In this document: piece after piece, positions 9,426 to 62,039 of the stretch
How the letters are laid out: the number at the start of each line of letters is the position of its first letter
Numbering within the stretch: the stretch's first letter is position 1
From: a virus
DNA length: 64,000 nt
Virus record (IMG/VR): IMGVR_UViG_3300042893_000474
Coordinates: 1 to 64,000 of that record
Reading direction: 5' to 3' (one strand)
Made by a program: the position numbers and the translations under genes
The notes under the pieces: model-generated
Told to the model about the DNA's origin: nothing
Database searches by the model: none
What the model saw: the letters and a program-made list of their open reading frames with translations, nothing else

Positions 9426-9436
9426 CACCTACCTAT

Positions 9437-9589: not shown

Positions 9590-9592
9590 ACT

Positions 9593-9796: not shown

Positions 9797-9797
9797 C

Positions 9798-10115: not shown

Positions 10116-10116
10116 T

Positions 10117-12117
10117 ATGCATTTAGATAGTCCAGAATTTTTTGTTAATGTTAAGTCTGTCCCCGATAAAGAGTCTTCTGAGTATGTTGCTTTTTGGGAA
10201 GCAGAAGATAAAAAGATAACTGAAGGTATTACCATCAATGGTTTTCACTTTTCTCCTTTTATCTATTGGCATTTAAATTACTGGTCTATTTATGTGGACA
10301 CTATGATAGGTAATAGGCAAGTTCGTAAACTTGACCGCCCACAACTATGGGATACCTATTTAGCTGTTGACGAAACAATACATAAAGCTGAGAATCATAT
10401 TGAAGGTAAGAAAGGCGTTGTAATGGTAGGGTCTCGACGTATTTCTAAATCAGTATTGACTTCATCGTATATTACCCATAAATCAGTTACCCAAAAAGGC
10501 AGTGATAATCTAATCTCAGCCTTGAATGGTCCTGACTTAAAAATTATAACTGAGTACGTAGACTTAGGTTTACGTAATCTTCCAGAGTACTTTAAGTTTC
10601 CCCGTATTGAGGACGATTGGAAACGGCAAGTAACTTTAGGATATAAAGACAAACAAAACGTAAGACATGAATGGTCTAAATTTCACATCCGAAACTTCGA
10701 TGAAGGTAACAATACGGAAGCAGCTGCTGGTCTTACTCTATCTTCTTTTCTCTTGGAGGAAGGAGGAAAAGGAAAGATTCTCAACTGCTTGGCGGCAACT
10801 ACTCCATGTTTTGATAGTCCATTTGGATGGCGTTGTTCTCCTTTTGTCATTGGGACTTCGGGAGATATGACAAGAGCGGGGGATCTTGAAGAATTATTCA
10901 ATAACCCTGAAGCATATAATTTTCTTTCTGTAGAATCTACAGAGTCTGGCAAATCTTATGGTTTGTTTATTCCAGGTACTAAATCATTAAAAGTTCCAAA
11001 AGAACCAAAATCTTTAGGACTTTACCTAGAGAAAGACTCCCCTTCTGAACTAGATAATGTTACAATTTGGGTATCCGATGAGGTAAAAGGAAGAGAACTT
11101 ATTTTAAAATCTCGTGAACAGATTAAAAAGTCAAGTGGTCTTGAAGCATATCTGAAAGAGATAATGTATTATCCTCTTACACATGAGGAATGTTTCCTTG
11201 AGTTATCGCAGAACATTTTCCCTGTAGATTTACTTCAAGAACAATTACAGAAAATAACTGCAGCTGATGCCAACCCAGATTATGTTGAGTTAGTTCAAAA
11301 GACTGATGGTACTATAACTCACAAGTTTACTGAAAAGAAACCAGTACAAACATTTCCTACAAAGCCTACTGATAACTTAGAAGGTGTAGTTCAGATTTGG
11401 GAATACCCTATTAATGGTGCACCCTATGGACTATATACAGCAGGGACTGACCCATATAAACAGTCTCAGGCTAAATACTCTACTTCATTAGGATCTACTT
11501 ACATATACAAACGTGTTCATGATATAGCTGGAGAAGGATGGCAAAACATTGTAGTAGCAGCATACACTGGGCGTCCTAGAAAAATTGAACAGTGGTATGA
11601 GTTAACTAAAATGCTTCTTAAGTATTATAATGCGAAGACTCTTTGTGAAAACATGGATATGGGTTTTATTCAGCATTGTATTGAAAAAAACGAATCAGCT
11701 TTCCACTTAGAACGTACTCCTTCTTTCTTGAATGATATTCATCCTAGTAGTGCAGTAAATCGTGAATACGGAATACACATGACTAGTGATATCAAAGACT
11801 ATTTAAACTCCCTAATCATTGAATACATTACTGAAGTCATTGACAGAGACGTAGACAAAGAAGGTAATGTCATTAAAGAAAGATTAGGGGTAACTCGAAT
11901 CTTAGATCCCCTACTATTAAAGGAGTTGATTAAGTTCACCCCTAAGTTAAACGTGGATAGGGTTATTTCATTTGGACTTACTTTGGCAATGGCAAAATCT
12001 TTAAATGGAAAGTCTATTGTAGTGTCTTCTACAGAAGATGCACGCATGCAAGATTACTTCAAAACATCAAAATCGAAACAACTTTTTAGGACAACTAGAA
12101 ACCCTTTTAGGTACTAA
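10117..12117 (+). CDS. terL: terminase large subunit
   Basis: Walker A-like GSRRISKS, Walker B FLLEEGG, RNase H-like nuclease GTDPY...NVDRV; followed by portal. Confidence 0.92.
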   Translation: MHLDSPEFFVNVKSVPDKESSEYVAFWEAEDKKITEGITINGFHFSPFIYWHLNYWSIYVDTMIGNRQVRKLDRPQLWDTYLAVDETIHKAENHIEGKKGVVMVGSRRISKSVLTSSYITHKSVTQKGSDNLISALNGPDLKIITEYVDLGLRNLPEYFKFPRIEDDWKRQVTLGYKDKQNVRHEWSKFHIRNFDEGNNTEAAAGLTLSSFLLEEGGKGKILNCLAATTPCFDSPFGWRCSPFVIGTSGDMTRAGDLEELFNNPEAYNFLSVESTESGKSYGLFIPGTKSLKVPKEPKSLGLYLEKDSPSELDNVTIWVSDEVKGRELILKSREQIKKSSGLEAYLKEIMYYPLTHEECFLELSQNIFPVDLLQEQLQKITAADANPDYVELVQKTDGTITHKFTEKKPVQTFPTKPTDNLEGVVQIWEYPINGAPYGLYTAGTDPYKQSQAKYSTSLGSTYIYKRVHDIAGEGWQNIVVAAYTGRPRKIEQWYELTKMLLKYYNAKTLCENMDMGFIQHCIEKNESAFHLERTPSFLNDIHPSSAVNREYGIHMTSDIKDYLNSLIIEYITEVIDRDVDKEGNVIKERLGVTRILDPLLLKELIKFTPKLNVDRVISFGLTLAMAKSLNGKSIVVSSTEDARMQDYFKTSKSKQLFRTTRNPFRY

Positions 12118-12216
12118 ACTAGACTTATTTTAAAAATTTAAGTAGCAAAATTAAGATTTGGTATTATTTTTACGCCTAGTTATACTTTAAAAGTTAATAC
12201 CTTAACATCCATTGTT

Positions 12217-46500: not shown

Positions 46501-47448
46501 GTTACAGAAGACTCTATCGTTAATATGGAGATGGGTGCAGCTGTAGGTAACTTACTTGATATTATAGGCCGTGACGTACTTGGTGGCAATAAAATAAACT
46601 CTTTAGCTGATTACATTAAAGAAGCTGAACGTATGGGCAAATCTCTTAAAGGAGGTACTGGGTATAAGATTAACTTTACTCAAGAACAGTTTGACCAACT
46701 ATTAGCAGAACTTACAGAAGTTAAGGAGGAATTAAATTCACAAGGGTGGAAGTTGTTTACTGAAGGATTGATTGTACATCGTGAGTTTACTGAAAAAGAA
46801 AAACAAGAAACTGGCTATGAAGGTGTAGCTGGAGCAATGGATATCTTAGCAGTAGATCCTGAAGGTAAAGTACACATCATTGACTTTAAGAATAAGAAGT
46901 ACAGAACTCAAAATAAGTTTACAAGTACTCTGTATAGTTCTAAACAAGGTTATCCTTCTAACGTAAGCAAGTGGTCTATTCAACAAACTACCTACGCTAT
47001 CTTAGGAGAAGACTTTGGATTACCTGTAGATTCAATTAGTATCTTAGCATTTGCATCCGAGTATGCAGAAGCTAATGGTACAGTTACTATTGGTGGATTA
47101 ACTCTAGGTAGTAAGAAAGCAGAAGTACTTGACAAGCATAAGAGTCCTGTGTCAACTAGTCTGATTAAACTTGGATTTGATTCTAAGATTATCAAACATA
47201 TTAAACTGCGTACTGAAAAGCCTTCTAGAGAAATAGCTGTTAAACCTACCGAGGCTACTACTATTGCTGCCGCAGACCAAACAAACTTAGATAAGCTACA
47301 AGAGAATTTACCACAAATAGCTTCAGAAAATGCTGAAAACGTTTTTGATGTATTAAATTTGTTAGGTATAGAAATGGATACATTAGGAGTAATTCTTCCA
47401 ACTGAAGGAAGTACTGACCCTGATGCCCTTAACCCACCCCCATGTTAG
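40513..47448 (+). CDS. giant cargo protein with membrane-like segments and C-terminal PD-(D/E)xK nuclease
   Basis: 2311 aa; Gly/Ala hydrophobic region; GAMDILAV...HIIDFK...QQTTY nuclease motifs. Confidence 0.75.
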   Translation: MISPGTIRAASLVSKGVSPEAALRTANNIDIYTENRRSFLASNPTTNQVTPNTSINGSSTSAIPSTVVNTPTPSPMAKGVSLGNINSSLSNVAVKASKDFTKDESDAISKLAASVENPIKKKAIVFGDPTALIDDQATSEGLAKLSPKQLGQLGANLQSTLHQNYIDNLPTASSKLNFVPDQYKNKNYEKELIKNLDKLYIDYNSGLMDSPTVAGLMKAEHTKRLSSYQGLVKGFTTSKDFNGLSKSYEGLISELDLQDKNATDEFENAQRQYNRGKSDIKQTSLTVGQGSQDYQRNKNKYKALKEELSSVYNKRANAMLANEVLDIIDTRYKEASKVNPQLSKEKFFEQQQKQYGLDKSAFGLGQILVESGRFESYQDYIRFTNPTKYSKKSTTAGREQGFTLEDPFVKNNTEALDLSRSYEGMSNVQGYDQTRNRETGSYKYNDTKDDLIFTGIKFAQSISEELDNRTIKSIKEREQLKLQYNKKEMLGTSTKEDKQQYETRLAELDSQVEYSDSFSKTIPEVYKYDKIKNNGLIKSFAEDRRLFLDQQKNWNDLKNAPVQTAWYQDVALSMMVGNFGKTQTGAYWKELGNRVWGKALGMGADIAKFTDQTILNETLGVPKSASYNDRNQFYNYMRQRLDVPEVIDERASLMAGKPITSTTIFWTDPAASWYNPTGWNFSWKGTLMTGAETLPQLYAFSGAGRIAQSLGGGVLKAGLATGVTTTLLGQANAARFALTLQKTGSTAAAWGNTFRNSNNVFLKEALADRIPSALGMATVMYPEQYNRTLERLEMQGVKNARSIAHNVALLSTGIELIAENFVPNIRYLDDFAEKGTGFKSLLGKLGAKSWIGDFDQYRALYSGVLGDKFSEKSINYLARNSAELFGKVGAAGRFYASRGAEEGIEEVFSELVNGVIDAKTSYANYRQEAPNELSFDSIVNAFAGGFFVPSAGASNQMKIYTENKKYSAMYDMMINSDYYKNKINTAFKAGEITQEQATNMLSRVQDLVSVADEFGVQNLKRQPDAARFTADLVNDEDKQFDYFKQVLKARGIEEKLGKDNAVIKDEERTALLAESEEATKRIDKYKRQVSVFESMSDTQKTQIVNDTIAAKVQTAKFSSNSQILSESIENADNQLARAIQQKAPETRISALKEYRNALIQASEDRASAKQVALDRGTYNPVIQAVTSTGEASPLDLSEIKTGEDAIDVVVQSMLDPENGMDMYYHITGQTQQSLEQVKQDKENLVDNFLDYLEQTEAGPTVDNTRESAPTTANTATERVKYKTISDLNDSQKDMFEDLAERIDDELLDLQTKVEKYDSVLTQVLQHGAINANMSLEQQEKFSDFIFKKFAAVKKVGFKTNQDKGSELFDLQEFGLYLGRNQKEIEKEINDIDAAITKEENAQKVEREEVSLDGLENVDATEELKVPELTPEDITDSFTSNLNLLENIVEQQQVEVVDNQITGEVDTLVDLPRERSRIISALITEIAMNPDIKGAQAMMAAVMQVLGKSNQEIAKTLAQMGEIAENKPVNESDYTHMFNLYQLARMTENVPASTEAVENAAEDLTEAEPVVVEPIIEPVVEVIPTPVITPPATENQKDELADKTQISSTTPMFRPTSKKDLVNLVHYEIQESIIFGLNKEIRDKKDVNTAIVDLFTMIDEVLGEETLAGLEKVFNEAASLAVGEQRLQELRAEFMSLFPSGFLRQTVLDYMFDQIIVNKVAQSDVTEKGKEKLDASDEELIALNKNREVSIQMADGRKFTKVKVVSKDGVLLYAIEKGKEDGKTLWLKVDRTKDKVIGLKYPILGTRPIQFSDLNALLFTVLDNNGNIQKYGEDGNRNESGDKSLAFYLPTPKYKAEPTETQKQFNGLRQKIVAGDRVKVNAPVKGMSVSKGVVTIGQPDGSTITKNTDYALEFSTENLSVKEQTPSEATQFTQAKEAKVISENISPTQATTIAAVEKMIADSKKIPDPSKEGYLINGKRYERQSNFVKRALGDSNVVTEDSIVNMEMGAAVGNLLDIIGRDVLGGNKINSLADYIKEAERMGKSLKGGTGYKINFTQEQFDQLLAELTEVKEELNSQGWKLFTEGLIVHREFTEKEKQETGYEGVAGAMDILAVDPEGKVHIIDFKNKKYRTQNKFTSTLYSSKQGYPSNVSKWSIQQTTYAILGEDFGLPVDSISILAFASEYAEANGTVTIGGLTLGSKKAEVLDKHKSPVSTSLIKLGFDSKIIKHIKLRTEKPSREIAVKPTEATTIAAADQTNLDKLQENLPQIASENAENVFDVLNLLGIEMDTLGVILPTEGSTDPDALNPPPC

Positions 47449-47454
47449 TAAAAG

Positions 47455-50400
47455 ATGAACGCCTGTAGTATAAAAGGAACTTCCTACGAAAAAGAGTACA
47501 GACAGATTTTGTCTGAACCTGCTATGATATTTGTTTGGAATGCAAACAATGAACAACCTTTAGATAAAAAGAAAGTAGGAAATGAGGTAATAGAAAATCC
47601 TCTTTATACTGCTCTACTAAATCACCCAGTAACAAAAGGAGAAAGACAGAATGCACTTAAGTTAGTAGCACAAAGTTTTTTACCTGCATTCACTAGAGAG
47701 TATACTCCTAACGAAGAAGGAGACTACTCTTTAGAACAAGTGGTAAGTTATGTAGAGAAGAGACAGAAACAAGCACAAGATCAAAGAGAGCAGCTAAAGT
47801 CAAGTATTAACTTGCCAACTAGCATGGCAATTAATATTCCAGATGGTGTTATTAATGAAACTGCTCGCCAAATATTCTTTTCAGAAGAACAGGGACAAGA
47901 CATCTATGACACACTTCAGTATTTACTAGGAGTAAAAAAGTCATGGGATGGTGTGTACAGTGAGTTAGTAAATCAACGTAATACTATTTTAGGTAGAGTA
48001 AAAGCAGGACAACACTTTTCTGAAGACCCTGAGAGATTAGCATACAATGAAATCCTTGTACAAAACTTTGATAAGATTAAGTCTTGGTACGATTCTAAAG
48101 AAGGTTTAGTAGGAGAAGCAGAACTTGAGAGTCAGTTTGGAGATTCTGAAGATTGGAAGTCAAAAGATAAATCACAAGCTCAAAGGGCTTCTTCTATTAT
48201 ATTAGGATTAGTTACTTCATTACCTGCATACCGTACTGCTATCCCAGGAGAAATAGATTTTGAAACAGGCGAAGAATATCAACAAGTTACACAAGTTCAA
48301 GTTCAATCAACTGTAACAGGACTACCTAAGTCAGGAGACTTCCAAAAGAACTGGAGTTTACTAGGAAGTACATTGTCAGGTATGACTAATTATTCGGACA
48401 TGTATGAGGCTATTGAAGGTTTATCTAGTAGATATCCTCAGTTTGCTTACTTGTTGAGTAAGATACCGAATGCTAAAATCCCTGGAAGTTTTAAGGATGT
48501 TAGACAATTCTTATTGGCTAGTGAATTTAAAAGAGTATTTAGTGTACCTGAAGTTTCTTCTGTAGTAGTAGACGTTACATTAAAAGAAAACGGTAAGATT
48601 GCTACAACACAGCAACTAAAAGGATTTCAACCTGTTAGAAATGCAGTAGCTCTTTATGATTCTCAGTACTTTAGTTATAATCAAAAATATTTAGTAAAGG
48701 GTTTAGAAGGAAACGAAGTAAATCTAGAAGGAATTATAGAAGACTTTCAAGGTTTATTTAACGACTTAGGAAGTGCTTTGACTAAGAAAGTTCCTATGCA
48801 GAACTTTTTATTCCCTGCTCGTCTAGATAAGTTTGTACAGTTTTTACAATCAGTTGGACTAGGGCTTAACAATCAAGAGTATCTTAAAAGTACCAACATT
48901 AATGGGACTAAGGAATTTATCCAAGCAAACTTAGATAAGTTAAAAACTATTTACGAGAAGTTAAAGATTGTTAGCATTGCAAATGAGTATTTAACTGATG
49001 ATGCTAAAATAAAAGTAGATAGACCTCTTTCATTTCTTAGAGATACCATCCAAGAGATTTATGTATCTAAAGGTAAAGTAAGACCTGACGTAGAGGCAGC
49101 ATTAGAACAAGCTTTTGCAGATAACAAGTTGCGTTATAAAGGAGGTGTTAAACAAGCTATTGGATACTTGGGAATTAAGAAAACTGAAATTAGTCCTTTT
49201 ATTAACTTCTTTACTCAATACGATGCTGAGTTTAGGCCAAGTTCTTATATGAACGCAGCAGACAAGAAAAAGTTTGTAAGAGGCCCATGGTTTTATTTAA
49301 CTCAACAAACAAATGTAATTAACTCAGTAAGCAGTTACGATGAGTTAATCAACATACCAGGTTTTGAAAGATTTGATTATCGTAAGAATCCAGATATTCT
49401 TGGATCACTTTGGTTACAAAGAATGTTTGGGTTACCTAGAACTAAGAATGCTATAGAAGCAAACCCTCTAGGTACTTATGTACGGAAGAAAGATACGTTA
49501 GGTAATCCTATAGAACTTAACATAGCCAATTTTGATGGTATGGAGATTAAAAACTTTGGAGCTAAGTCAGGTAAAACAACTACTGACCAGCATCCAAATG
49601 ATAAAATCTTCCAAGACTTTGCTAGTTTTTTCCAATCTCTTGAGATGGAAAATATTCGTTTTGGTGACAAGACAGCTGCATTTACAGTTCGTGCTTCTAA
49701 TCCAATTCTTTCTGAAAAGATATACGTGGCTTTAAATGCTGCGGAACTTATTACTCCTACGGAAAGATTAGAATCAGAAAAAAGTTTAACCGAGTTATTC
49801 AATGGTTACTTAGCTTCAGAAGCAACAAGAATCATAAAGCTGATAGAAGAAAAAGGTAGAGGTACAACGTATGACAGATTGGGTAAGAATCTCTTTATCT
49901 TTAATGACATTCTTCCTGAAGATACATTAAATAAATTCAAAGACGCTAAAACTAGAGAAGAAGTAATTGCAGCCTACACAGAGGCTACATCAATGATGTC
50001 TACTGTTTTACAAGAGTACTTCTCACAAGAGTCTCAGAAGTTAGTAGACAAGCTAGTAGATACCTTTAGTACTTCTGTAAATATTACAACAGGACAAGAG
50101 GTAACTCAAGCCCAAAGATTAAAACAAACTGTAGAGAAGTTAAATAAACTTAATCTTATAAGTACACAGTTACTGCCTAGTGAGGTTAGAGATAATCCTC
50201 CAAAGATTACAGTAGAAAACTTGCCTTATTTAGCTGAAATCTATTTGAAGAACGGCTTTGTACATAACGTTGAGTTCTTAAAAATGTTTGTTGGGGATTT
50301 ATCAAATTTTGATAAAACTAATTTAGACGCTCGTGAGATATTCAAACGTATTCCTTTTACTTCTTCTCCTGGTAATGTGTTCTTTTGGGATGAAGCAGCT

Positions 50401-53400
50401 CAAGAGTTCTTTGATAATGATACAAACCAAGATGCATTAAGTATTGCTTATACAGGAGTTGCTAATAAGTTTAGTCCAATTCTTAAAACAGTTGTCTATA
50501 ATGATGTAAATACTTTTAGTTCTGAGTCTTATCAGGAGTACAAAGAAGCTTATGATAGTGACGATAGTTGGGATGCTTTAACTGAGGACGAGAAGTCAGA
50601 ATTTTCTGAATACGCTAATAAACCAAAAGAAGCAGATGCTCAAGGAGTAATTACCCTAGACTCTTACCGTAACTATCTACTAGGAATCAATCGCTGGAGT
50701 TCAGAACAAGAACAGGCATATAACAGACAAGTAAGACTAGTAAAAATTAATCAGGAGTTAAATAACAATCCAACAAATGCAGAAGAATTATACAAAGAGA
50801 AGAATGAGATTGTTGAGAATTTTGGTTCTGCCTTATTCCCTCCTCTTAAGTTAGGTCACTACGGAGCTATTGTAGAAGACCCTAAGTTAATAGCATTACA
50901 TAAGTTCTCATTGATTCCTTTGATTCCTAGCGCAATAGAAGGTAAAGCTTTAGAAAAGCAACTTGAGTTAATGTATAGGAACAAAATCAATTACTATACA
51001 TTCAAGTCAGGTTCTAAGATGGCTCAGTATGGAGAGTCTATTGATTTCTACAAAGAAGTAACTAACGAACAAGGAGAGAAAGTACTTGTAGTAAATGACG
51101 CACTAGGAGAAAATAATGTTACATCTATCCACCTTCAGAACTTAAGAGAGCAGCAGTATCAAGCCCCTAAGTTTAAAACTCAAGCTACACTTGCTACTCA
51201 GATGATGAAGTTGGTGTTTGGGGACTTCTTTGAGAATGGAGAAATATCTTCTGACTTTAGTGAAGGTACACAAAGACAAATTGAATCCTTGTATGATTCA
51301 TTTAAAAACAATATTAACGACCTAATTACTTTTGAAACAATTAAACTAGAAAGAAAGTTAGGAATTAGACGTAATGCAGCTAAAGAAATTATAGAAGTAG
51401 ATCAGTTGCAGATGGCAAGATTTTTTGCCGAGGAGTTAGAAAATAAAGAAGCTCCTGAAGCATTACGTAGATTCATTCAAGTAAACGAAGATGGTACATT
51501 TAAGTATCCTCTAGATGCAATCAACAACAGAAATCAATTAGAAAGTCTTGTACTAAATGTAATCAACAATAAAGTTATTTCTCAGAAAATCAATGGGGAG
51601 AGTTACATTCAGGTAGCAGGTACAGGGTTTGAGACTAAGCGATATGTTAAACCAACAGCTGAACAGTTAAAAGAGTTTGGTGCTAACGATCTTCAATTCT
51701 ATACAAGAGACCCTATTACGGGGGAAACTTTACCTATGGAAGTTAAAGTAGGATTCAATGTTAAAAAACATGGAGGCTTACTTAAGTTAGAGTATGGTAA
51801 AGGGAAAGTAGAAACTTTAAAACAGTTAAATAAAATCCTAGGATCTAAAGCTCCTTTAGATATTGCTTGGAAAAAGAAGCACATGGATAAGTTAACTATG
51901 GTAGGAGTTCGTATTCCTGTGCAAGGTTTCTCTCAAATGGAATATGCAACCATTAAAGAGTTCTTACCAGAATCTGCTGGAGCAATCATGGTTCTTCCTG
52001 CGCAGATTGTAGTTAAGTCAGGAGGAGATTATGATATTGATAAGTTGACTTTCTTTGAAACATCGTACGATAATAAGGGTGAGGTTTATAAAAAATCATT
52101 CAACTTAAAAGATTACGAAGCCAAGTTAGAAAAGCAAAAAGAGTTAAAGAAAACTAGACAAGAGCTTATAACTTTAAGTGAGTTACTTGAGAAAGAAATT
52201 GCTGATAACGATATCTTTAGAGAAAGAGAATCTCTTAAGAAAGAAATCAATGAAATTAAAAAAGAGATATTAAATGCTAAAGCAGCAGTAGAAGATTTCT
52301 TAGATAGTGGATTTTTAACAAAAGAAGATGCTAGCTGGGCAAGAGAAGCTGCCTCTGATAAAGAAGATTTACAAAGAGCTTTTGCTGACTTAGATAGTTT
52401 TGATACTGCAAACGATGTTCGTGTATTACAGACTGTATCTTTAATTAAAAGTAAACTTAGAGAGATCAGCAAAGAAGTAGAAAGTATAGATGCCTACAAA
52501 AAGAGTTTAAGTAATAACTTAGTAGGCATTCTTAAGGGAGTATTGATGCAAGGAGAATTATACAATGCATTGATTACTCCAAATACAAACAGTGTTTTAA
52601 CTCAGTATACACCTCCAGGAGAGAAGATAAGCACTACAGCTGTGTTTAGTCCTTTAACTTCTTGGAGAATCTATATGGAGAACATTCTTTCTAAAGATGC
52701 ATTAGGAATCGATGCTAAGATAAATACGCTTCAGAAAGAATTCCAAAGAGCAGGATTGAAGATTACAGGTAGTCTACTAAAGAAGTATTACTTTGAGTCT
52801 AACAAAGACAAACAAGGAAATATAATTTTAGGAGGCAAGAAAGATGCACGGGGGGAAAACCGTATTTCTAAAGTATTGAGTGAGTTCATTAACGGACACG
52901 TAGACATTGCTAAAGAAGACTGGATTATTTTATTAGGATTAGACCAAGAAACTAGTCCATTGGCACACGCAATGATTCTTACAGGAACTCCTGTAGAACA
53001 AGTGTTAGGTTTAATTAACTCTCCTATTATTAAAACAGTTCTTCAGTTAGGTAATAGACCAGAGATTCAAAAGAAACTAGATAATATTAGACCTAATAAA
53101 AAGAAAGCGATTCTTGGTTTAATTAAAAACAAACTTACTAAAGTTACAGACCCTGAGGTTAAAGCATTAATTGATGCTGCTCAGTTAGCTATTAGTGGGT
53201 TGAAAGTAAAGTCTACAAATGGTATTACGGATACTTTTGTAAACAACCTACTAGTAAATCCTATATTCAACAAACATATAAGCAACTTTAAACCTACAGA
53301 AAGTTTAAGTGAGGAAGAGTCTGCTATAAGAGATTTAGCATATTTGATGCAATTCTATGTAGTAGTAAGGCAGCAGGAAAGTTTGAGAGAGTTAACTTCT

Positions 53401-55515
53401 ATGAGTGACTTTAACACTACTAGTTATAGAACTTCGTTCCAGTCTGAAGAATTATTAACAGCTGGTAGCAAACTAAAGAATAACTTTAATGAAGAAGCTA
53501 TCGACTTTATGTTTAAAGAGTCTGCTTTAGCTCAGTTTAATGTAGGTAGTCTTGTTCAAGAAACTATGAGACAGATTTATCCTCTATCAGATTCTAAAGA
53601 AGTCCATTCAGATATTTATACCTTTATGGAGAGAAAAGGATTGTTCAAAGAAGAGGAAAAAATGCAAGCCATTCAAGGGTACAAGAACAATCTACTAGTT
53701 CCCTATGTTCTACTAAACGCCCAAACGCCAGAGAAAGGAAACTTACTAGAGTACTACAGAGGCAAGAAAGGAATATTTGTAAGAACAACTGCTAATAATA
53801 TGGAAGAAAGATTCCAAAGATTATTACAGAATCCAGAAATGAGGAACAACTTTGTCATGACTAACATCTATATAGACATAGAGAACTCAGGCAGAGAGAT
53901 TGAGTTTAAACTAAAGAACACTGATGTAGACGAGAACAGTAAGAGTTATAGACTTGCTTTCTTAGAAGGTTTAAATAGTCCTAATCCAGAAGTTAAAAGT
54001 TTCTTTGAAGACTTAGGTATGGGTTCGTACTTACAGTATGCAGGTTCATATGCATCTGGCCATGTATCTACTATTGTGCCTCATGAAGTTTATGTAAGCC
54101 ATACTACAAATGCTTTCAACAAACTAACCGAACTTAAAGATACTGATAGTGCTAAGTTTGATGCTTACTTAAGTTTAGTTAGATTCTCTACTAAAATGGC
54201 TCTTGAGACTGCGGGACCTATTAAAGGGTTAAGTACATTCTTTGTAAGTAACTATGCTGAGATGGCTAAGACTATTACTGGATTAAGCCCAGAAGTACTT
54301 AAGCTATATAAGAACAGAGAAAACCTCACCTCAGGTAAAGTAGAGTCTCTTCAGCAATCTCCATCTACTAGTGTTGAAGTAATTCCTCTAAATGAATCAC
54401 AAAGATTTACTAGAGAATCAGCTGAAAAAGATACAGAGTATATGTATTTATTTACAGATAATGCTGGTAGAACATCAGGCTCAGGAGTTATTGATCCTAA
54501 CAGTTGGTATGCTAAAAAATATGGTGCAGATAAAAAATATGCAAGTAAAACACAAGCTGTAGCAAGAGGTCTTAAAAATGTTTATCCTATTACTACAATG
54601 GTAGATGATAAGAGAACTCAATGGACAGATGACCAGTTTAATGAATACAAGAAAATTATTGATGATGAAATAGAAACTATTAAACAGGCATCTAAGAAGT
54701 ATAATGGTATTAAGTTTGGTGCAGAAATGCCTTTTGGTAAAGGTGCTATTTCTAATATGAAAGACAGTGCTCCTAAAATATGGAATTATCTTAATACAAA
54801 ACTTGCTGAAATAGGTATTGATAATACAGGAGATATACCTGTATCTACTCAACCATCTACTAGTGTTAATCTTTTAGTAGAAGCAGGAGTTAAGCCTACT
54901 GATATGGCAGGTAATGCTGCTAAAGATATACAGATGGCTTCTGAGTCTACTCAGTTTATTGGATTCCAATCAGGAACTGCAACTGTGAGTTCTACCAACA
55001 AATACAAAGAAGCTTGGGGAGATAAAGCAAACACAGGAAATTATACTGCGGACGATGTAGTAATGGTTTCAGGTAGTGGTTTATTTAGGGGAGTTACTGA
55101 AGCTCAGATAAAAGAAACTTTAACTAATAAATACAAACCTTTGTTAGAACAGGCTATTGCAGCTGGTGCTTCTTTTAGAGTGGGTAATCAATATGCTAAA
55201 GGAAATCTTTCTGATCAGTTAATTGCTCAGTATCTAAAAACTAAAGGATACCAAGAGGAGAAATTTAATGGGTATTCTAAATGGACTCCTAAAGTTACTG
55301 AAACAAGTCAAGAGATTCAAAAAGAAGTTATAGAAAACTTTGAAGAAGATTCTGATGTTACGGATACCAATGTGCCAAATACTCCGACACAGTTTCCTCC
55401 AACCAAAACAGATGATATTCAACTTACCTTAAAGTTAGACCCTGATCAGAAAGATGATGATAAAGGGAACTTAGATGACTTAGGGTTTGAAGAAGATACC
55501 TGTGAGATAGTTTAA
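47455..55515 (+). CDS. virion-packaged single-subunit double-psi-beta-barrel RNA polymerase
   Basis: 2686 aa; RIP motif near 51910 and catalytic GGDYDIDK (DYDID 52027-52041), the equivalent of DFDID in phi14:2 gp66. Confidence 0.88.
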   Translation: MNACSIKGTSYEKEYRQILSEPAMIFVWNANNEQPLDKKKVGNEVIENPLYTALLNHPVTKGERQNALKLVAQSFLPAFTREYTPNEEGDYSLEQVVSYVEKRQKQAQDQREQLKSSINLPTSMAINIPDGVINETARQIFFSEEQGQDIYDTLQYLLGVKKSWDGVYSELVNQRNTILGRVKAGQHFSEDPERLAYNEILVQNFDKIKSWYDSKEGLVGEAELESQFGDSEDWKSKDKSQAQRASSIILGLVTSLPAYRTAIPGEIDFETGEEYQQVTQVQVQSTVTGLPKSGDFQKNWSLLGSTLSGMTNYSDMYEAIEGLSSRYPQFAYLLSKIPNAKIPGSFKDVRQFLLASEFKRVFSVPEVSSVVVDVTLKENGKIATTQQLKGFQPVRNAVALYDSQYFSYNQKYLVKGLEGNEVNLEGIIEDFQGLFNDLGSALTKKVPMQNFLFPARLDKFVQFLQSVGLGLNNQEYLKSTNINGTKEFIQANLDKLKTIYEKLKIVSIANEYLTDDAKIKVDRPLSFLRDTIQEIYVSKGKVRPDVEAALEQAFADNKLRYKGGVKQAIGYLGIKKTEISPFINFFTQYDAEFRPSSYMNAADKKKFVRGPWFYLTQQTNVINSVSSYDELINIPGFERFDYRKNPDILGSLWLQRMFGLPRTKNAIEANPLGTYVRKKDTLGNPIELNIANFDGMEIKNFGAKSGKTTTDQHPNDKIFQDFASFFQSLEMENIRFGDKTAAFTVRASNPILSEKIYVALNAAELITPTERLESEKSLTELFNGYLASEATRIIKLIEEKGRGTTYDRLGKNLFIFNDILPEDTLNKFKDAKTREEVIAAYTEATSMMSTVLQEYFSQESQKLVDKLVDTFSTSVNITTGQEVTQAQRLKQTVEKLNKLNLISTQLLPSEVRDNPPKITVENLPYLAEIYLKNGFVHNVEFLKMFVGDLSNFDKTNLDAREIFKRIPFTSSPGNVFFWDEAAQEFFDNDTNQDALSIAYTGVANKFSPILKTVVYNDVNTFSSESYQEYKEAYDSDDSWDALTEDEKSEFSEYANKPKEADAQGVITLDSYRNYLLGINRWSSEQEQAYNRQVRLVKINQELNNNPTNAEELYKEKNEIVENFGSALFPPLKLGHYGAIVEDPKLIALHKFSLIPLIPSAIEGKALEKQLELMYRNKINYYTFKSGSKMAQYGESIDFYKEVTNEQGEKVLVVNDALGENNVTSIHLQNLREQQYQAPKFKTQATLATQMMKLVFGDFFENGEISSDFSEGTQRQIESLYDSFKNNINDLITFETIKLERKLGIRRNAAKEIIEVDQLQMARFFAEELENKEAPEALRRFIQVNEDGTFKYPLDAINNRNQLESLVLNVINNKVISQKINGESYIQVAGTGFETKRYVKPTAEQLKEFGANDLQFYTRDPITGETLPMEVKVGFNVKKHGGLLKLEYGKGKVETLKQLNKILGSKAPLDIAWKKKHMDKLTMVGVRIPVQGFSQMEYATIKEFLPESAGAIMVLPAQIVVKSGGDYDIDKLTFFETSYDNKGEVYKKSFNLKDYEAKLEKQKELKKTRQELITLSELLEKEIADNDIFRERESLKKEINEIKKEILNAKAAVEDFLDSGFLTKEDASWAREAASDKEDLQRAFADLDSFDTANDVRVLQTVSLIKSKLREISKEVESIDAYKKSLSNNLVGILKGVLMQGELYNALITPNTNSVLTQYTPPGEKISTTAVFSPLTSWRIYMENILSKDALGIDAKINTLQKEFQRAGLKITGSLLKKYYFESNKDKQGNIILGGKKDARGENRISKVLSEFINGHVDIAKEDWIILLGLDQETSPLAHAMILTGTPVEQVLGLINSPIIKTVLQLGNRPEIQKKLDNIRPNKKKAILGLIKNKLTKVTDPEVKALIDAAQLAISGLKVKSTNGITDTFVNNLLVNPIFNKHISNFKPTESLSEEESAIRDLAYLMQFYVVVRQQESLRELTSMSDFNTTSYRTSFQSEELLTAGSKLKNNFNEEAIDFMFKESALAQFNVGSLVQETMRQIYPLSDSKEVHSDIYTFMERKGLFKEEEKMQAIQGYKNNLLVPYVLLNAQTPEKGNLLEYYRGKKGIFVRTTANNMEERFQRLLQNPEMRNNFVMTNIYIDIENSGREIEFKLKNTDVDENSKSYRLAFLEGLNSPNPEVKSFFEDLGMGSYLQYAGSYASGHVSTIVPHEVYVSHTTNAFNKLTELKDTDSAKFDAYLSLVRFSTKMALETAGPIKGLSTFFVSNYAEMAKTITGLSPEVLKLYKNRENLTSGKVESLQQSPSTSVEVIPLNESQRFTRESAEKDTEYMYLFTDNAGRTSGSGVIDPNSWYAKKYGADKKYASKTQAVARGLKNVYPITTMVDDKRTQWTDDQFNEYKKIIDDEIETIKQASKKYNGIKFGAEMPFGKGAISNMKDSAPKIWNYLNTKLAEIGIDNTGDIPVSTQPSTSVNLLVEAGVKPTDMAGNAAKDIQMASESTQFIGFQSGTATVSSTNKYKEAWGDKANTGNYTADDVVMVSGSGLFRGVTEAQIKETLTNKYKPLLEQAIAAGASFRVGNQYAKGNLSDQLIAQYLKTKGYQEEKFNGYSKWTPKVTETSQEIQKEVIENFEEDSDVTDTNVPNTPTQFPPTKTDDIQLTLKLDPDQKDDDKGNLDDLGFEEDTCEIV
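54361..54867 (+). repeat. 15-bp in-frame direct repeat CCATCTACTAGTGTT (PSTSV) bracketing a domain
   Basis: Exact copies at 54361-54375 and 54853-54867. Confidence 0.85.
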
Positions 55516-55601: not shown

Positions 55602-58600
55602 ATGTCTTGTTTTGCAAAAATAAAATCTCCACTCAACGGTAAAACTATAACTAGTCCTGCCTACTACCAATTAACATCATTTTTTCCACCTGCTGAAGGG
55701 AGAAGAATATATGAGGCTACTACCACTATTAGTTTTAAAACCGAAATTGGTTTTGATTGGACTAAACGTCAACAAGGATACAGCCCTAAGCTAAACTTTG
55801 CTGGGGAGCCTACTTTAGATCAAATCAATACACACCTTAGACTAAACTTAAATCCACGGGAGATTAGAGCAGGAGAACAAATGGATGAAGTAGCAAGTCT
55901 AGGTTACCTAAACAAAGGTTATGCTAATCCAAATGCTTTTAACCTAATCACCAACGAGATTAACTTAAACCCCAAATATAGTTTAATAGAGAGCGAGGTA
56001 CTAGCAAGAGACGGCAAGTACTATCTATCAGTTAAACCAGTACCAAATGGCAAGTCTGTAAAACCTGTAAGTAAAGATTACTTAAGAACAGTAAAGTTTC
56101 CTGATATGATTGTTAACAGTGTTGAGGATTTTTCCAATGCAGGGTTAATAGAGTTGATGGATAACTTACTTAAGAACAAAGAGTTACCTCCTTTCCAACA
56201 CAAGATGTTAGAAAGATTGCGTAATTTAATGAAGATAAACCCAACACTTAAACTTGCAGTATTTGATGATGCTGAAGTAGACCAAGAGTTTCAAAGGTCA
56301 TTTTACGACCCCAAGAGTAACACCATATACATTGGTAAGACAATAACATCAGATTTTAATAAAGAATCATTTGCTCGTGAGTTAATTCACGAAGCAGTGC
56401 ATGCTTATACTATCTCAGCTTTAACTAATCCAGTAACTGCCGAAGAGAATAGATTCAGACAGGAGATGGAAAGATACATCTCTGAGTATAAATCTAAGTT
56501 TCCTAGACTACAACAGCAGTATGGTTTTAAAAATGTAGAAGAATTTGTTTCGGAGTATCTCTCTAATCCCTACTTTAGAAATGATTTACAGGAAGCAGAG
56601 AGAACAAGTAAAGATAAAACATTTATAGGCCGTGTTACAGGCAACATAAAGAGATTCTTAAAGAACGTATTAGGTTTAGGAGATACTTTGTTTGACAGAG
56701 TTAACCAAACGATAGATGATTACTTTGACTATCTGGAGAATCTAGAAGACATGCCTGACCTTGCAGGTGAGCATGAACTAAGATTTAACCAACCTTATGC
56801 AGCACAGCCTGTAAACCCACTTAGTGTTAACTTGAGTCAGTTCCAACAGTATGTTGATAGTACTTTTAATAGTTCTAGTTGGAAGCAACTAAGTCAAGGG
56901 TTATCTGAGATTGATCCACGTTTTGCTTCTATTGAAAGAATTAGGGAGAAATTTGGAAACATCTCAAGTGCGTCATTAGGCAGCACTATTAAATCTTCTA
57001 TTGACTATCTAGTAGCAATAGAGCAACTAGTAGATAGAGTTGCTAAGGATGTTGATTTGCACAGAGACAACTTAGGCTATTATAGTTCAGAAGATGCTGT
57101 ATCGGTATTTAATCATGCAATACATATAGCTGAGTTTGTTCAAGAGCAGATGGCTGCTTACAATCAATATTTGATGCCTCAGTTGAGGATGGAACAAACA
57201 AAAACTGACTTAGATATAAACCCTGTAGGAGCTGCAGAATTTAGACAAGAGCGTAGAAGTCAAGTAGAGAATTTTGATATTGTATCTCAGGAGTTAATTG
57301 CCAAACTTAAAGGTATCTCTAACAAATCAAACAGTTTAAAGAGTGAAGCTAAGTCTTCTATTTTAGCTCCAGTAGCATCCCAGTTAAGTGAGCCTTTTAT
57401 ATTAATTGCTGCTCAGTTAAAAGAGCCCAACAGTCAATTGAACCAAGAGATTGATGCTAAAGAAAAGTTGTATCAACAAGCTTTGGCAAGCAATCAGAAT
57501 AAGAAAGCAGCTGATATGTTAAAGGACTTGAATCAACTTAGAATGTTTAGAGATTGGGTTCCTACCCAACAAAACATTATTAAGTTGCTTCAGACTGGTA
57601 TGAATCCTGAGTACACAGGTGCTAACTTTTTTACTATTTACTTGGGAGTGGCTAACATGACAGGTAGCCCTTTGGTTCAAGTAGTTAAAGAATACTTAGA
57701 CGTACACTTGACTGAAGCAGGTAACAAGAGTCTTGAGTACACCAATAGAGCAAGTAAATTATTTGATAAAATTGAAGCTAGGAATAAAAAGCAAGGTATT
57801 CGTTGGACACAAAGTATAGACAACTTTTACAAGAACTTAACTCGTGAGGTTGATATGGTTTACTATGACGCCAATGGTGTGCGTAGAGTAGTAAAACAAC
57901 TTGCTTATAATACAAAGTTTAAAGAAGCTGAGTTCAGAAATGATTTACAGGAGTTAAAAAGAAATGTAGATTCGGCTAAAAAGGGAGGAGTAGAGGCAGA
58001 AATAGTAGAAGCTCAAGAAAAATTACAAAAGTTCCTAGATGATTACGCAGTACGCCCTTACACAGATGAATACTATGAAGCAGAAGATTTATTAATTTCA
58101 GAAGCTAGAGATGCTAGAGCAGATTTATTAGACCAACTAGAAGAGCACCAGGCTGTGTTTGGAGATGCAGAGGCTAGTCAAGAAGAAAGAAAGCATAGAA
58201 CAGAGTTAAGAAGAGCTTATGAAAGACTAGGTTCTATTTATAATGAAGATGGTACTGAGAAACCTAAAGGAACTAAAGAAAGAAACATTGCAGATTCTAT
58301 TATTGCTTATAAAAATAAACGTAAGGCACTAGAAGCTATTGAATTTGTAATCCCAGATAAAGTTAAAGTACGTTTTGATATTGAGAAGAACTCACGTAAA
58401 CAAAAAGTAGCTGACTTAGAACGTAAGATTAGTATCTTAAATACTGATATTGCAGATGAGATTGCTCTTGGGCAGGATCCTACTACTAAACAAAATGAGT
58501 TAGTAGATATAACAGCACAGCTAGAAATAGCTAAAAATGATTTAACTAAATGGCTCAATGCTAACACTCGTACTGAGATTGACCCTGAGTTTTTTGAATT

Positions 58601-61600
58601 GCAAAGAAGCATTGCAGATAAAATCAAAAACATCTTTCTTAAATATGGAGAAGATCCTTTATTAAGTGAGGCGTATGATGAGTTGTTTAATTCAGTTAAA
58701 GGGTACAGAGACCAGGATGGTATTATAGTAGGTAGCCAAATCCAGAGAGGATTAGGACAAACTATTAAAGACTTAGAGACAAAGATTGAAAAACTTAAAG
58801 AGGACGCAGAAGAAAATAGACAGATATCTGACCAAGATAAAGAAACTCTAAAAGTTCTATTCAAACAGATCAGCGATATTCAAACTAAAGAAACTACTGA
58901 ATACTACGTAGAGCAATACAACAGCGTTGCTCGTGCCGCTAGAGTAGACTTATATGCAGATGCTCAACAAGTAATAGAGATTAAAGAACTTTCGGAAAAA
59001 TTAGCAGACCAGTATATTGAGAATGAAGGTTTAGTTGACGAAGATTTAGAGTTAGACGATAACTTACCTGTTCTAAACCATCCTTCTGAATTTGGTACAG
59101 ATAAACATAGGAATGATTTGATATCTTCTTATGAGAATATGATTACTGAGATGCGTTTGCAACAAAGAATCAAAGAAAGCGATTGGTATAAAGGAAATCA
59201 TATTTCTATTAAGAAGAGTTACACAGATAAAAAGACAGGAAAGAAAGTAATTAAGATTTACGAAAGACCTATTTATATCTGGAACCGTACTATTCCTCGT
59301 AATGCTGCTTATATAAAACAAGAGAACCCAAACTTTGATTGGGCAGTACCTAGAGTTAGAGATGAGTACAAAAACAAAGATTATAATTTCTTAGGTTCTG
59401 CTAGACCTAGACAAACTACAGACAATAAATATACTAACGAAGTTTATACTAAATCACTACAAGACGATAAAGACATTGCTGATGAGATGGTAGGTCTTTA
59501 TGAGGACATACAAAGAAACTTGCCTGTATCACAACGTCTTGAAGGTTATGTTGTACCTAACAAGACTAGAGAGGCTAAAGAAAATATAACTGATATGTTT
59601 ACTAATCCTTTGGCTAGATTCAAAGGTTGGGTAGATGGTTGGAAACTTATCTTTAAACCAGGTTTAGCGGGAGAAGATCAGTATGAAGATGAGATATCTA
59701 GTTTAATTAATGAAGAAGACAAACAAAAGATATCAAAATCAAAAAGAAAAGTACAATTAATTAAAACCAGATATAAAGAACCTTTAAACACAAATCAAGT
59801 ATCCCGTGTATTAGTTCAATCACTTGCTGAGTATGGTGCATATGCTGCTGAATTTGGAGGATTAAAGAAAGCAATGCCTGCAGTATTTGCTGCTAGAGAA
59901 GCTGCTTTAGAGACAAACATACCTGATGGAGATGTTCAGATGCTGGATAATGAGATTCAAAGATTCTTTTATGGAGGGGAAGTAAGCAATACTAGTTTGG
60001 GAAATAATCCATACATGAAGGCTACTATGCGTGCTATGAGAAGAATGTTCAGGTTTAGTCAGAGTCGAGTCTTGTTGTTTAATTTTCTGCGTGTATTTAA
60101 AAACATCTTTAACAACTTCCTTAAGATTGTTTTAAGTAAGAATAAGTATGGATTAACTAGAAAAGAATTACTCAGAGCATGGTGGAAAGGTTTAAATATG
60201 AGGCGAAGTCTGGTATCACTAGAGATAGGTTCTAAACAACATAGTGACTATGCATTAAAACTAGTTCATTTTAGAGCGTTACCTGCAGCAGACCCAACTA
60301 AACTAGCATCAAACGTACACCAAACAAGTATTTTTAAATACGCCAACGCTGAGAATTTCAGTGGTCAGATATTTGGATATATGGAGATGGCTTCTACCAT
60401 ACCTATTTATGAAGCATTAATTGCTCGTTTGGATGTACCTATTGTAATTAACGGTCAACAAACTAGAATTAACTTAAGCGATGCTTACGAAGTAATTGAT
60501 GGTATTCTTGTTCCAAAAGAAGGAGTATTTGGATTAGAGTTAAACGCAATGCGTTCTTTAGTAGAAGATAGAAAGCAAATAATATCAACGTATTTAGCCC
60601 AAGAAGGAGTCTCTACTATAGAAAAATTAAGCAGTGCGCAAAAGACAAAGTTAAAAGGACTATTAACTTCAATAGACGTAAAGATTAATAGTTTAGAAAA
60701 AGTAAACTCAGTAAAGCAAGAAAAGTTAAAATTAATAGAACAACAGTTAAGAGACCAGATACACGAATTATACACTAGTACACAGGGTAACTACTACGGA
60801 AGATCTCGTTCTGCTTATGAGAAGAATCTTTTTGCAAGTATGGTAATGTCTATGAGACGCTGGTTAGCTCCTAATCTTCAGACAAACTTTGGACAGCGTA
60901 GACTTTCTTTGTACACAGGTAATCTAGAAGGAGGATTTTATGCAGAGGGTGGAAAATCTTTACTTAGAAAAATGCGATACTTAGTCGCTGGAGAGAGAAT
61001 GGATTTAGGAAGTACTGAGTTTGAGAAAGAAAAGCATCAAAGAATATTTAGAGATACTTTAAACGTAGTAGGACTACATGCTATCTCATTAGGATTAACT
61101 TCACTTTTATTTATGGGATTAGGAGGTGGAGGAGATGATGACCCTTCTAAGTTGTTATCACTTCTAGCTATTATTTCTTTAGGTACATATGATGAAGCAA
61201 TTAGTTTACATCCATTACTAGCTCCTGCAAACTGGACTTATAAAACATTCTTTAGACAGCCTTTGGCAAGACCAGGAGATGAAGAAGGAGGTGCTAGTAG
61301 TGCAGTGAGACATGGACTCTATGCTTTATTTGGACCTCAGATGAGAAGTTTTGACCAAATTTTTGAAGCAATTTTTGACTCAAGAAATATTACAGACCCA
61401 TTTGAACCTTACTACGAACAAAGAAGAGACATGGGAGGTAATAGTATTGTTAATACCCCTGCTCCTACTAGAGGATTACCTAGAGTACTTGCAATGGCTA
61501 TGAAGTATTATGGAGTAGAGTCAGGTTTAAAACCATTCTATGCGCCTAGAAAAAGAGTTATGGATATGTTAAAACTTAATCCTATGTTAGGAATGCAAGA

Positions 61601-62039
61601 TCCTTTGGGAGATTACGTACAAATTCAACAAAAGATATCTGATTTACAAAAAGATATCCTAAAGAGAGACCCTCAAGATAATGTCTACTTTATGGAAGGC
61701 GAGTGGGATAAAATGTCTAAACCTGATGTAGAAGAAATGAAATCTAAAGTTGCTGAGTGGGGAGTTCTTAAAGTAGAAAAGATGATGATGGAGTCGTCAA
61801 ACCCAGTTATTGAAGCTGCTAAAATGGAAAAAGACATTAGTGCTTATGAAGGTTCTCAAGATGTAAAACAGATAGAATTTATGTTGCAAGACTTTTATGA
61901 TGTTAAATTACCTAAAGCTCCTAAGAATGAACAGACTGAATTTTATAAATCAGTAGAGAAAGCATTTCAAAAGAATAGACGTAGCACTATCCAGAAAAGT
62001 TTTGAGCAACTACAACAAAGCCAGATGTCTCCAGAATAA
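55602..62039 (+). CDS. giant cargo protein with zincin metallopeptidase domain
   Basis: 2145 aa; LIHEAVH (56388-56402) plus downstream EEFVSE; C-terminal hydrophobic hairpin. Confidence 0.78.
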   Translation: MSCFAKIKSPLNGKTITSPAYYQLTSFFPPAEGRRIYEATTTISFKTEIGFDWTKRQQGYSPKLNFAGEPTLDQINTHLRLNLNPREIRAGEQMDEVASLGYLNKGYANPNAFNLITNEINLNPKYSLIESEVLARDGKYYLSVKPVPNGKSVKPVSKDYLRTVKFPDMIVNSVEDFSNAGLIELMDNLLKNKELPPFQHKMLERLRNLMKINPTLKLAVFDDAEVDQEFQRSFYDPKSNTIYIGKTITSDFNKESFARELIHEAVHAYTISALTNPVTAEENRFRQEMERYISEYKSKFPRLQQQYGFKNVEEFVSEYLSNPYFRNDLQEAERTSKDKTFIGRVTGNIKRFLKNVLGLGDTLFDRVNQTIDDYFDYLENLEDMPDLAGEHELRFNQPYAAQPVNPLSVNLSQFQQYVDSTFNSSSWKQLSQGLSEIDPRFASIERIREKFGNISSASLGSTIKSSIDYLVAIEQLVDRVAKDVDLHRDNLGYYSSEDAVSVFNHAIHIAEFVQEQMAAYNQYLMPQLRMEQTKTDLDINPVGAAEFRQERRSQVENFDIVSQELIAKLKGISNKSNSLKSEAKSSILAPVASQLSEPFILIAAQLKEPNSQLNQEIDAKEKLYQQALASNQNKKAADMLKDLNQLRMFRDWVPTQQNIIKLLQTGMNPEYTGANFFTIYLGVANMTGSPLVQVVKEYLDVHLTEAGNKSLEYTNRASKLFDKIEARNKKQGIRWTQSIDNFYKNLTREVDMVYYDANGVRRVVKQLAYNTKFKEAEFRNDLQELKRNVDSAKKGGVEAEIVEAQEKLQKFLDDYAVRPYTDEYYEAEDLLISEARDARADLLDQLEEHQAVFGDAEASQEERKHRTELRRAYERLGSIYNEDGTEKPKGTKERNIADSIIAYKNKRKALEAIEFVIPDKVKVRFDIEKNSRKQKVADLERKISILNTDIADEIALGQDPTTKQNELVDITAQLEIAKNDLTKWLNANTRTEIDPEFFELQRSIADKIKNIFLKYGEDPLLSEAYDELFNSVKGYRDQDGIIVGSQIQRGLGQTIKDLETKIEKLKEDAEENRQISDQDKETLKVLFKQISDIQTKETTEYYVEQYNSVARAARVDLYADAQQVIEIKELSEKLADQYIENEGLVDEDLELDDNLPVLNHPSEFGTDKHRNDLISSYENMITEMRLQQRIKESDWYKGNHISIKKSYTDKKTGKKVIKIYERPIYIWNRTIPRNAAYIKQENPNFDWAVPRVRDEYKNKDYNFLGSARPRQTTDNKYTNEVYTKSLQDDKDIADEMVGLYEDIQRNLPVSQRLEGYVVPNKTREAKENITDMFTNPLARFKGWVDGWKLIFKPGLAGEDQYEDEISSLINEEDKQKISKSKRKVQLIKTRYKEPLNTNQVSRVLVQSLAEYGAYAAEFGGLKKAMPAVFAAREAALETNIPDGDVQMLDNEIQRFFYGGEVSNTSLGNNPYMKATMRAMRRMFRFSQSRVLLFNFLRVFKNIFNNFLKIVLSKNKYGLTRKELLRAWWKGLNMRRSLVSLEIGSKQHSDYALKLVHFRALPAADPTKLASNVHQTSIFKYANAENFSGQIFGYMEMASTIPIYEALIARLDVPIVINGQQTRINLSDAYEVIDGILVPKEGVFGLELNAMRSLVEDRKQIISTYLAQEGVSTIEKLSSAQKTKLKGLLTSIDVKINSLEKVNSVKQEKLKLIEQQLRDQIHELYTSTQGNYYGRSRSAYEKNLFASMVMSMRRWLAPNLQTNFGQRRLSLYTGNLEGGFYAEGGKSLLRKMRYLVAGERMDLGSTEFEKEKHQRIFRDTLNVVGLHAISLGLTSLLFMGLGGGGDDDPSKLLSLLAIISLGTYDEAISLHPLLAPANWTYKTFFRQPLARPGDEEGGASSAVRHGLYALFGPQMRSFDQIFEAIFDSRNITDPFEPYYEQRRDMGGNSIVNTPAPTRGLPRVLAMAMKYYGVESGLKPFYAPRKRVMDMLKLNPMLGMQDPLGDYVQIQQKISDLQKDILKRDPQDNVYFMEGEWDKMSKPDVEEMKSKVAEWGVLKVEKMMMESSNPVIEAAKMEKDISAYEGSQDVKQIEFMLQDFYDVKLPKAPKNEQTEFYKSVEKAFQKNRRSTIQKSFEQLQQSQMSPE

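Follow-up and report, generated by a model that had tools for sequence, protein, structure and literature searches.

Small domain cassettes probably exchanged in frame at a DNA-conserved linker in a giant crAss-type RNA polymerase gene

The window analysed here is a stretch of viral DNA of 64,000 nucleotides (nt), positions 1 to 64,000 of the 93.7-kb IMG/VR virus record IMGVR_UViG_3300042893_000474 (36% G+C), and it contains a giant open reading frame (ORF) of 2686 amino acids (aa), assigned to a crAss-type RNA polymerase (RNAP). Between the polymerase body and the C-terminal tail this ORF shows two small domains, cassette 1 (D1) and cassette 2 (D2), each of them preceded by a linker that contains the same 15 nt. 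Comparison of related loci shows that whole cassettes have been gained, lost or substituted in frame at the linker, and that cassette 1 has spread recently among very divergent polymerase genes. The best explanation, which we consider likely, is an in-frame exchange of cassettes by recombination at a DNA-conserved linker, on a polyvalent crAss RNAP that is probably injected into the host. The features of this region are the following (designations with L refer to IMG/VR loci):

47455..55515, + strand: giant ORF of 2686 aa, crAss-type RNAP with the cassette array (ORF list, translation and tblastn of aa 900-1554)
52021..52044, + strand: catalytic DxDxD motif GGDYDIDK, aa 1523-1530, also present in the RNAP homologues of L005, L006, L009, L010 and L012
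54355..54375, + strand: linker 1, QSPSTSV, whose last 15 nt are the exact repeat and whose 5' half is non-canonical; the backbone alignment to L004 and L005 stops at 54360
54376..54846, + strand: cassette 1 (D1), DUF7831 domain of about 157 aa (Pfam PF25176, Foldseek BFVD, and nt identity to copies in divergent RNAP genes)
54847..54867, + strand: linker 2, the canonical 21-nt ACT CAA CCA TCT ACT AGT GTT (TQPSTSV), with 25-27 nt of exact identity to linkers of L006, L009 and L010
54868..55299, + strand: cassette 2 (D2), unnamed Rossmann-like domain family of about 145 aa (homologue clusters, AF2 model and fold search)
55333..55512, + strand: acidic C-terminal tail module with the near-terminal Cys2683, retained through cassette swaps (97.4% nt identity to L006 despite different upstream cassettes)

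An in-frame repeat within the polymerase gene

The 15-mer CCATCTACTAGTGTT is found in the window in exactly two copies, both on the + strand, at 54361 and 54853, as had been noticed in an earlier note on this DNA; the spacing between them is 492 nt and there is no third copy in the window at two or fewer mismatches. Both copies are in frame and read PSTSV, at aa 2303 and aa 2467 of the ORF. Since about 12 independent repeated 15-mers are present within the window, a 15-nt repeat by itself is weak evidence. The PSTSV pair is not due to chance, because the two copies are in frame and 492 nt apart, the probability that a second PSTSV uses the identical 15 nt (given the peptide and the codon usage of the window) is 0.008, and dozens of related genes show the repeat at a boundary between domains. 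A target-site duplication was also considered and was rejected: the identical sequence bounds unrelated cassettes in many genes.

Loss, replacement and spread of cassettes in related loci

Nine loci obtained from an IMG/VR scan with the last 571 residues of the polymerase (L004-L012) were compared by their translations and by blastn. L004 and L005, which belong to different metagenomes, align with the window at 90.7% nt identity as far as 54360 and at 94.9% from 54855 onwards; what they lack in between is precisely cassette 1 and one linker, and the junction is a degenerate linker, QQSTAV. L006 has the polymerase body in common with the window as far as 54375 (90.6%) and the tail again from 55333 onwards (97.4%), and between the same linkers it shows two other cassettes. 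The RNAP C-termini of related phages, whose comparison the earlier note had proposed, differ in cassette content exactly at the linker; neither fixed domains nor a linker without conservation in DNA was found, since the content varies and the linker is DNA-identical.

Cassette 1 shows 99.4% nt identity to its copies in L007, L008 and L009, 98.8% in L010 and 92% in L011 and L012. The shared identity starts at 54360-54363 and stops at 54835-54864, that is, at the linkers. All carriers of these copies are RNAP homologues, most of them with the same catalytic motif, and their bodies are 24-45% identical in aa to the polymerase of the window. Because the linker-bounded module is far more similar than its carriers, this distribution bears the signature of a recent horizontal exchange of cassette 1. 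The right-hand ends of the D1 identity vary (54835-54864), which fits homologous exchange and not precise site-specific cutting. The deletion and replacement seen in L004-L006, together with the spread of cassette 1, support the view put forward in the earlier note, of a plug-in array of domains on the RNAP that is shuffled through the repeat. A fragment of cassette 1 with 94% identity (protein P0004) is deposited under a Candidatus Woesearchaeota metagenome-assembled genome, most likely because a contig of phage origin was placed in the archaeal bin.

When IMG/VR was scanned for the exact 15-mer, at least 118 stretches were obtained. At least about 55 matches are T(T)QPSTSV linkers that lie in frame in ORFs of 1000-4260 aa and are followed by very different sequences. 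Among the matches listed, which also define the counts given below for the linker sites, 24 of the 37 non-redundant long linker-bearing ORFs match the RNAP body and none matches the other two giant proteins of the window; the remaining 13 are mostly fragments at the ends of loci. Arrays of up to four linkers with a spacing of 447-480 nt are found in these matches, and L145 (ORF 1-9828) has six linkers after the RNAP body. The arrays are usually C-terminal to the RNAP body and sometimes N-terminal (L142 and L028). In L142 and L143 (ORF 3421-12468) three to four linkers lie N-terminal to the body, so arrays can occupy either side of the polymerase.

Clustering of the sequences that follow the linkers gave at least 31 cassette families, with bounded lengths of 126-319 aa, most of them 138-165 aa. 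Many families show no Pfam match. Those with a Pfam name include NADAR, ART-PolyVal, cpYpsA (SLOG), two subfamilies of DUF7831, 2OG-FeII_Oxy_2 (an AlkB-like oxygenase) and a P-loop kinase of the AAA_33/Zeta_toxin type. This repertoire is the same as that of the polyvalent proteins and of the viral NAD/ADP-ribose network, both described by Aravind's group (PMC5512222, PMC9503650).

The linker and the explanations of its conservation

The 15-nt repeat is the core of the 21-nt TQPSTSV linker, which brackets cassettes in the RNAP genes of many IMG/VR crAss-like phages; the counterparts of linker 2 in L006, L009 and L010 precede other cassettes. In 45 of the 46 in-frame QPSTSV sites the same 18 nt are present, and the Gln codon, which lies outside the search pattern, is CAA in all 46. 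The variants QSSTSV, QLSTSV and QPSTSI are each single nucleotides away from the consensus. Loci fetched through a peptide inside cassette 2, and not through the linker, provide an unbiased sample. Their upstream linker is canonical, or differs by a single non-synonymous nt or by shortening (QPSTIV, QSSTSV, QQSTAV, TTQEST and TTQQST), or is unrelated, in which case it is a stretch rich in Ser, Thr, Gln and Pro. Since the non-canonical forms are for the most part single non-synonymous substitutions or unrelated sequences, the linker peptide is, as judged from these loci, not under strong constraint. The canonical copies nevertheless agree in their DNA, although the genes that contain them must have reached saturation at synonymous sites; this fits recombinational spread and homogenisation, and fits long-term selection of a peptide signal poorly. 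The proposal that the nucleotide-level identity of the linker marks recombination sites is upheld by the 18 nt common to nearly all QPSTSV sites and by relatives that differ exactly there.

Several points weigh against in-frame exchange at the linker on an injected polymerase. The canonical linkers were sampled by searching for the exact 15-mer, which biases the sample by ascertainment towards these 15 nt; some D2-bearing relatives show unrelated linkers, so that the canonical one is not universal; and the exact identity shared at a joint is 15-27 nt, which is short for classical homologous recombination. The exchange is read from sequence comparison and not from directly observed recombination events, packaging and ejection of the polymerase of the window are carried over from its homologues, and neither D1 nor D2 shows a significant match to any solved enzyme in sequence and fold searches of the PDB.

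Among the alternatives, the one that retains some weight, although we regard it as rather unlikely, is that the linker serves chiefly for proteolytic processing: TQPSTSV would be cut by a protease packed alongside the polymerase, such as the adjacent giant protein with an HExxH motif, small enzymes would be freed, and the DNA identity would be a by-product of cassette spread. The linker peptide does recur at many domain boundaries, the downstream giant ORF contains HExxH at aa 263, and Iyer et al. (2017, PMC5512222) propose that zincin-like peptidases process polyvalent proteins. However, most changes in variant linkers alter the peptide (P to S or L, S to I or A, V to I, or shortening), some relatives have unrelated linkers, and the canonical copies hardly vary at synonymous positions, whereas peptide selection over a long time would predict the reverse. 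In addition, Pfam gives no peptidase family in the adjacent giant ORF, and the paper on the crAss001 virion (PMC10172136) has no word starting with 'cleav' or 'proteolytic'. A protease site and a recombination joint are compatible, and both roles could coexist in the same linker. With a clearly lower probability, the linker would be more than tolerated microhomology, namely a selected and dedicated signal for in-frame exchange, possibly recognised by a phage enzyme; the polymerase gene would then be an 'integron within a gene', and very divergent crAss-like phages would share one pool of injected effectors. A site-specific or homing mechanism dedicated to the linker DNA, with integron-like in-frame capture of cassettes, is very improbable. 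The extreme conservation of the 21 nt with their internal ACTAGT palindrome, and the near-uniform size of the cassettes (126-319 aa, most 138-165 aa) and their arrangement in arrays, would suit such a mechanism, but the shared identity ends at points scattered over about 30 nt, only half a linker is present at some junctions (for example on the right side of L010), and the ORF lists of the loci show no integrase or homing endonuclease beside the arrays. Least probable of all is that the pattern is artefactual. Either the repeat would be fortuitous, as about 12 repeated 15-mers in the window are, or metagenome assemblies would be chimeras fused at a common cassette of 500 nt, since one shared at 99% identity could mislead assemblers. 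However, the same junctions come from independent metagenomes (L004 and L005, L007 and L008, L142 and L143), all arrays are in frame within ORFs of 2000-4000 aa, and a chimera would not yield a precise deletion of one cassette on a backbone of 91-95% identity.

Under the preferred explanation, in-frame exchange by recombination, the polymerase carries two autonomous small domains (DUF7831 and Rossmann-like) between its body and a conserved acidic tail with a Cys near its end. Each cassette is introduced by a short Ser/Thr/Pro/Gln linker whose DNA, beyond the peptide, is kept identical across many phages (21 nt, core 15 nt), and this linker would act as an in-frame joint at which co-infecting or related phages exchange, insert and delete whole cassettes. 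The route may be homologous or microhomology recombination or gene conversion at the linkers, with the reading frame and the tail preserved. Since the tail is retained through the swaps, the position of the cassettes between body and tail, and not at the very end, is explained. The cassettes are probably delivered at time zero with the ejected polymerase, because its homologues are virion components that enter the cell. They probably act in the first minutes of infection on nucleotides of the NAD/ADP-ribose type or on modified nucleic acids or macromolecules, as early helper or counter-defence enzymes, plausibly directed at defences based on NAD/ADP-ribose, in view of the NADAR, ART-PolyVal, SLOG, AlkB-like and kinase cassettes that share these joints. 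D1 and D2 would share this nucleotide-processing or anti-defence role.

Cassettes 1 and 2

The domain boundaries drawn in the earlier note are correct: D1 (54376-54846) and D2 (54868-55299) both fold compactly and both have homologues that stand alone or are placed differently. Cassette 1 is assigned to DUF7831 (PF25176) by the Pfam gathering threshold of 27 bits. The isolated cassette reaches 35.3 bits (E 1.1e-8), the C-terminal 391 aa reach 31.5 bits and the whole 2686-aa protein 26.7 bits, just below the threshold. The AF2 model of D1 is a compact alpha/beta domain (pLDDT 82), and in the Foldseek BFVD it matches DUF7831 proteins of crAss-like phages, other phages and giant viruses (E 2e-11 to 8e-3). 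Homologues of 150-160 aa that stand alone are about 60% identical; in one homologue the domain is joined to a motif like that of YpsA/MoCo carriers (SGGQTGVD).

The resemblance of this domain to macro domains, which had been suggested previously, appears as a weak signal in the fold and is absent at the level of the profile. In a VIA-align wide search against solved structures macro domains make up 8 of the 10 top matches (DarG, PARP9, TARG1, CHIKV nsP3 and Poa1p among them), with low scores (Z 3.4-4.0, root-mean-square deviation 4.3-4.8 over 111-131 residues). Pfam gives no match of the Macro profile (PF01661) in cassette 1 at E<=1, and a PF01661 search of the whole genome record found nothing, in the same test in which control genomes gave matches. 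Foldseek of the D1 model against the PDB gave nothing better than E 0.1. A macro-like fold of cassette 1 is a lead suggested by the model. Comparison of cassette 1 with the 'FVFGSN' cassette family by BLASTP and hhalign gave no significant match.

Cassette 2 has no match in Pfam, PHROG or NCBIfam (noise only in NCBIfam and PHROGs), and none of 30 members of its family has a Pfam match either. At E<=1e-3 the family comprises 291 representative clusters. Most of them lie within giant proteins, of up to 6057 aa, in which the position of the domain differs; some members stand alone and some are fused to RNase H or DUF4326. The motifs KD..MA..ATQFIG, SST..Y, ANTG.Y and D[VI]V.VS are conserved in the family (window 54868-55299, proteins P0038-P0177). 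The AF2 model shows a compact three-layer alpha/beta domain (pLDDT 91), and the fold search gave only generic Rossmann-like or three-layer alpha/beta neighbours (Z<=5.4); with the PDB, Foldseek found nothing better than E 0.1, and the ESM Atlas contains no usable match. Of the SLOG/Rossmannoid assignment made from the sequence, the Rossmannoid part stands as a generic fold, whereas SLOG is not supported by the one profile test, in which hhalign of the D2 alignment with a cpYpsA cassette gave a probability of 0.15%. By hhalign the D2 family matches the second cassette of L006 (probability 82%, E 1e-5), and the two are probably distant homologues. The D2 family may represent a new family of domains in giant phage proteins. 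Sequence searches of the PDB with the whole protein, its C-terminus and the profiles of both families gave nothing usable.

The carrier polymerase

By tblastn, aa 900-1554 of the ORF match genes labelled as RNAP catalytic subunit in Carjivirus communis and other Crassvirales (E 1e-7 to 7e-18, about 23% identity). No PDB relative of the 2686-aa polymerase was found by phmmer; therefore its identity rests on the DxDxD motif, the tblastn matches and the gene context, on which the ORF is assigned to a crAss-type RNAP of a divergent crAss-like phage. It is the middle one of three giant ORFs (starting at 40513, 47455 and 55602) downstream of the structural genes, an arrangement that matches the three RNAP-associated cargo proteins present in crAss001 virions (PMC10172136). 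The DxDxD motif, which binds metal in the two-barrel catalytic core, the giant size and the place among three giant genes are shared with the virion RNAP of crAss-like phages (Cellulophaga phage phi14:2 gp66; crAss001 gp47/gp49/gp50). It differs from the RNAPs of gut crAss phages in its identity of only about 23% and in having no phmmer match in the PDB, and it carries a C-terminal cassette array, which is not mentioned in the published descriptions of crAss-like virion RNAPs that were examined. Judging from the published work on crAss001 and phi14:2 (PMC10172136), virions probably contain the polymerase of the window and eject it into the host together with the DNA.

The RNAP contains exactly two Cys, Cys4 (47464-47466) and Cys2683 (55501-55503). 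The single Cys of the first giant protein (40513) is its final residue (47443-47445), and the single one of the third is Cys3 (55608-55610). A Cys is present within the last 10 residues in 37 of 77 long D2-bearing proteins, compared with about 2% expected. This terminal-cysteine pattern suggests a head-to-tail linkage of the cargo proteins.

Comparison with known systems

Polyvalent proteins (Iyer, Burroughs, Anand, de Souza and Aravind, 2017, PMC5512222) combine disparate enzymatic domains in one polypeptide and are thought to enter the host with the DNA. The polymerase of the window likewise contains at least two disparate domains (RNAP body, DUF7831 and D2), its relatives add NADAR, ART-PolyVal, cpYpsA, the oxygenase and the kinase, and with its cassettes it would be injected in the earliest phase of infection, as polyvalent proteins are. 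Recombinational variability has already been raised for one polyvalent-protein system (PMC5512222). The present case differs in its carrier, a crAss-type two-barrel RNAP, and in a codon-identical 21-nt linker as exchange joint; PMC5512222 does not describe such a joint and contains neither 'crAss' nor 'linker'. In the literature searched (linker peptide, DUF7831 and crAss-like polyvalent proteins) no description was found of a crAss-type RNAP as cassette carrier or of a codon-fixed linker as exchange joint. Polyvalent injected proteins with possible recombinational variability are thus an already published theme, and the RNAP carrier and the codon-fixed joint are the aspects that appear new within that search.

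In polymorphic toxins (CdiA, Rhs and similar) a short pre-toxin motif such as VENN, also conserved in DNA, marks the point where C-terminal domains are swapped by recombination. The arrays described here resemble them in that a conserved short motif marks where variable domains are replaced. They differ in that several cassettes follow one another, with a separate joint for each, in that a conserved tail comes after the variable part, and in that the domains are not evident toxins. Neither immunity-like small ORFs nor orphan cassettes are found downstream of the polymerase of the window, the next gene being the giant cargo-type ORF at 55602. Integron gene cassettes are similar as compact modules of like size, with a recurring boundary sequence and arrays that differ among close relatives; here, in contrast, the exchange takes place in frame inside one coding gene, with no attC-like structure and no integrase, and the variable breakpoints point to homologous exchange.

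Crassvirales are among the most abundant phages, and their ways of coping with host defences are largely unknown. The exchange described here would give a concrete and testable picture, in which the first protein that enters the cell carries an exchangeable toolkit, reshuffled among phages whose polymerases are 24-45% identical, while the codon-fixed joint keeps the reading frame. Cassette exchange at the linker looks like a built-in means of reshuffling injected helper or counter-defence enzymes. The 21-nt linker is also a simple sequence handle for mining hundreds of uncharacterised candidate effector domains, including two families without known function, DUF7831 and the D2 family (291 clusters).

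Neighbouring genes and other repeats

The downstream giant ORF (55602-62039), in which the HExxH motif is zincin-like and no Pfam peptidase match is present, is a candidate processing protease. Outside the window, at 85442-86017 (- strand) of the record, an ORF of 227 aa shows a match near the Pfam cut-off to AAA_24 (Sak4-type ATPase), suggestive of a candidate annealing protein or phage recombination function. Two other exact direct repeats, each of 17 nt, are present in the window: one at 7842-7858 and 8754-8770, with copies 912 nt apart, and the other inside the third giant ORF at 56577-56593 and 57936-57952, with copies 1359 nt apart.

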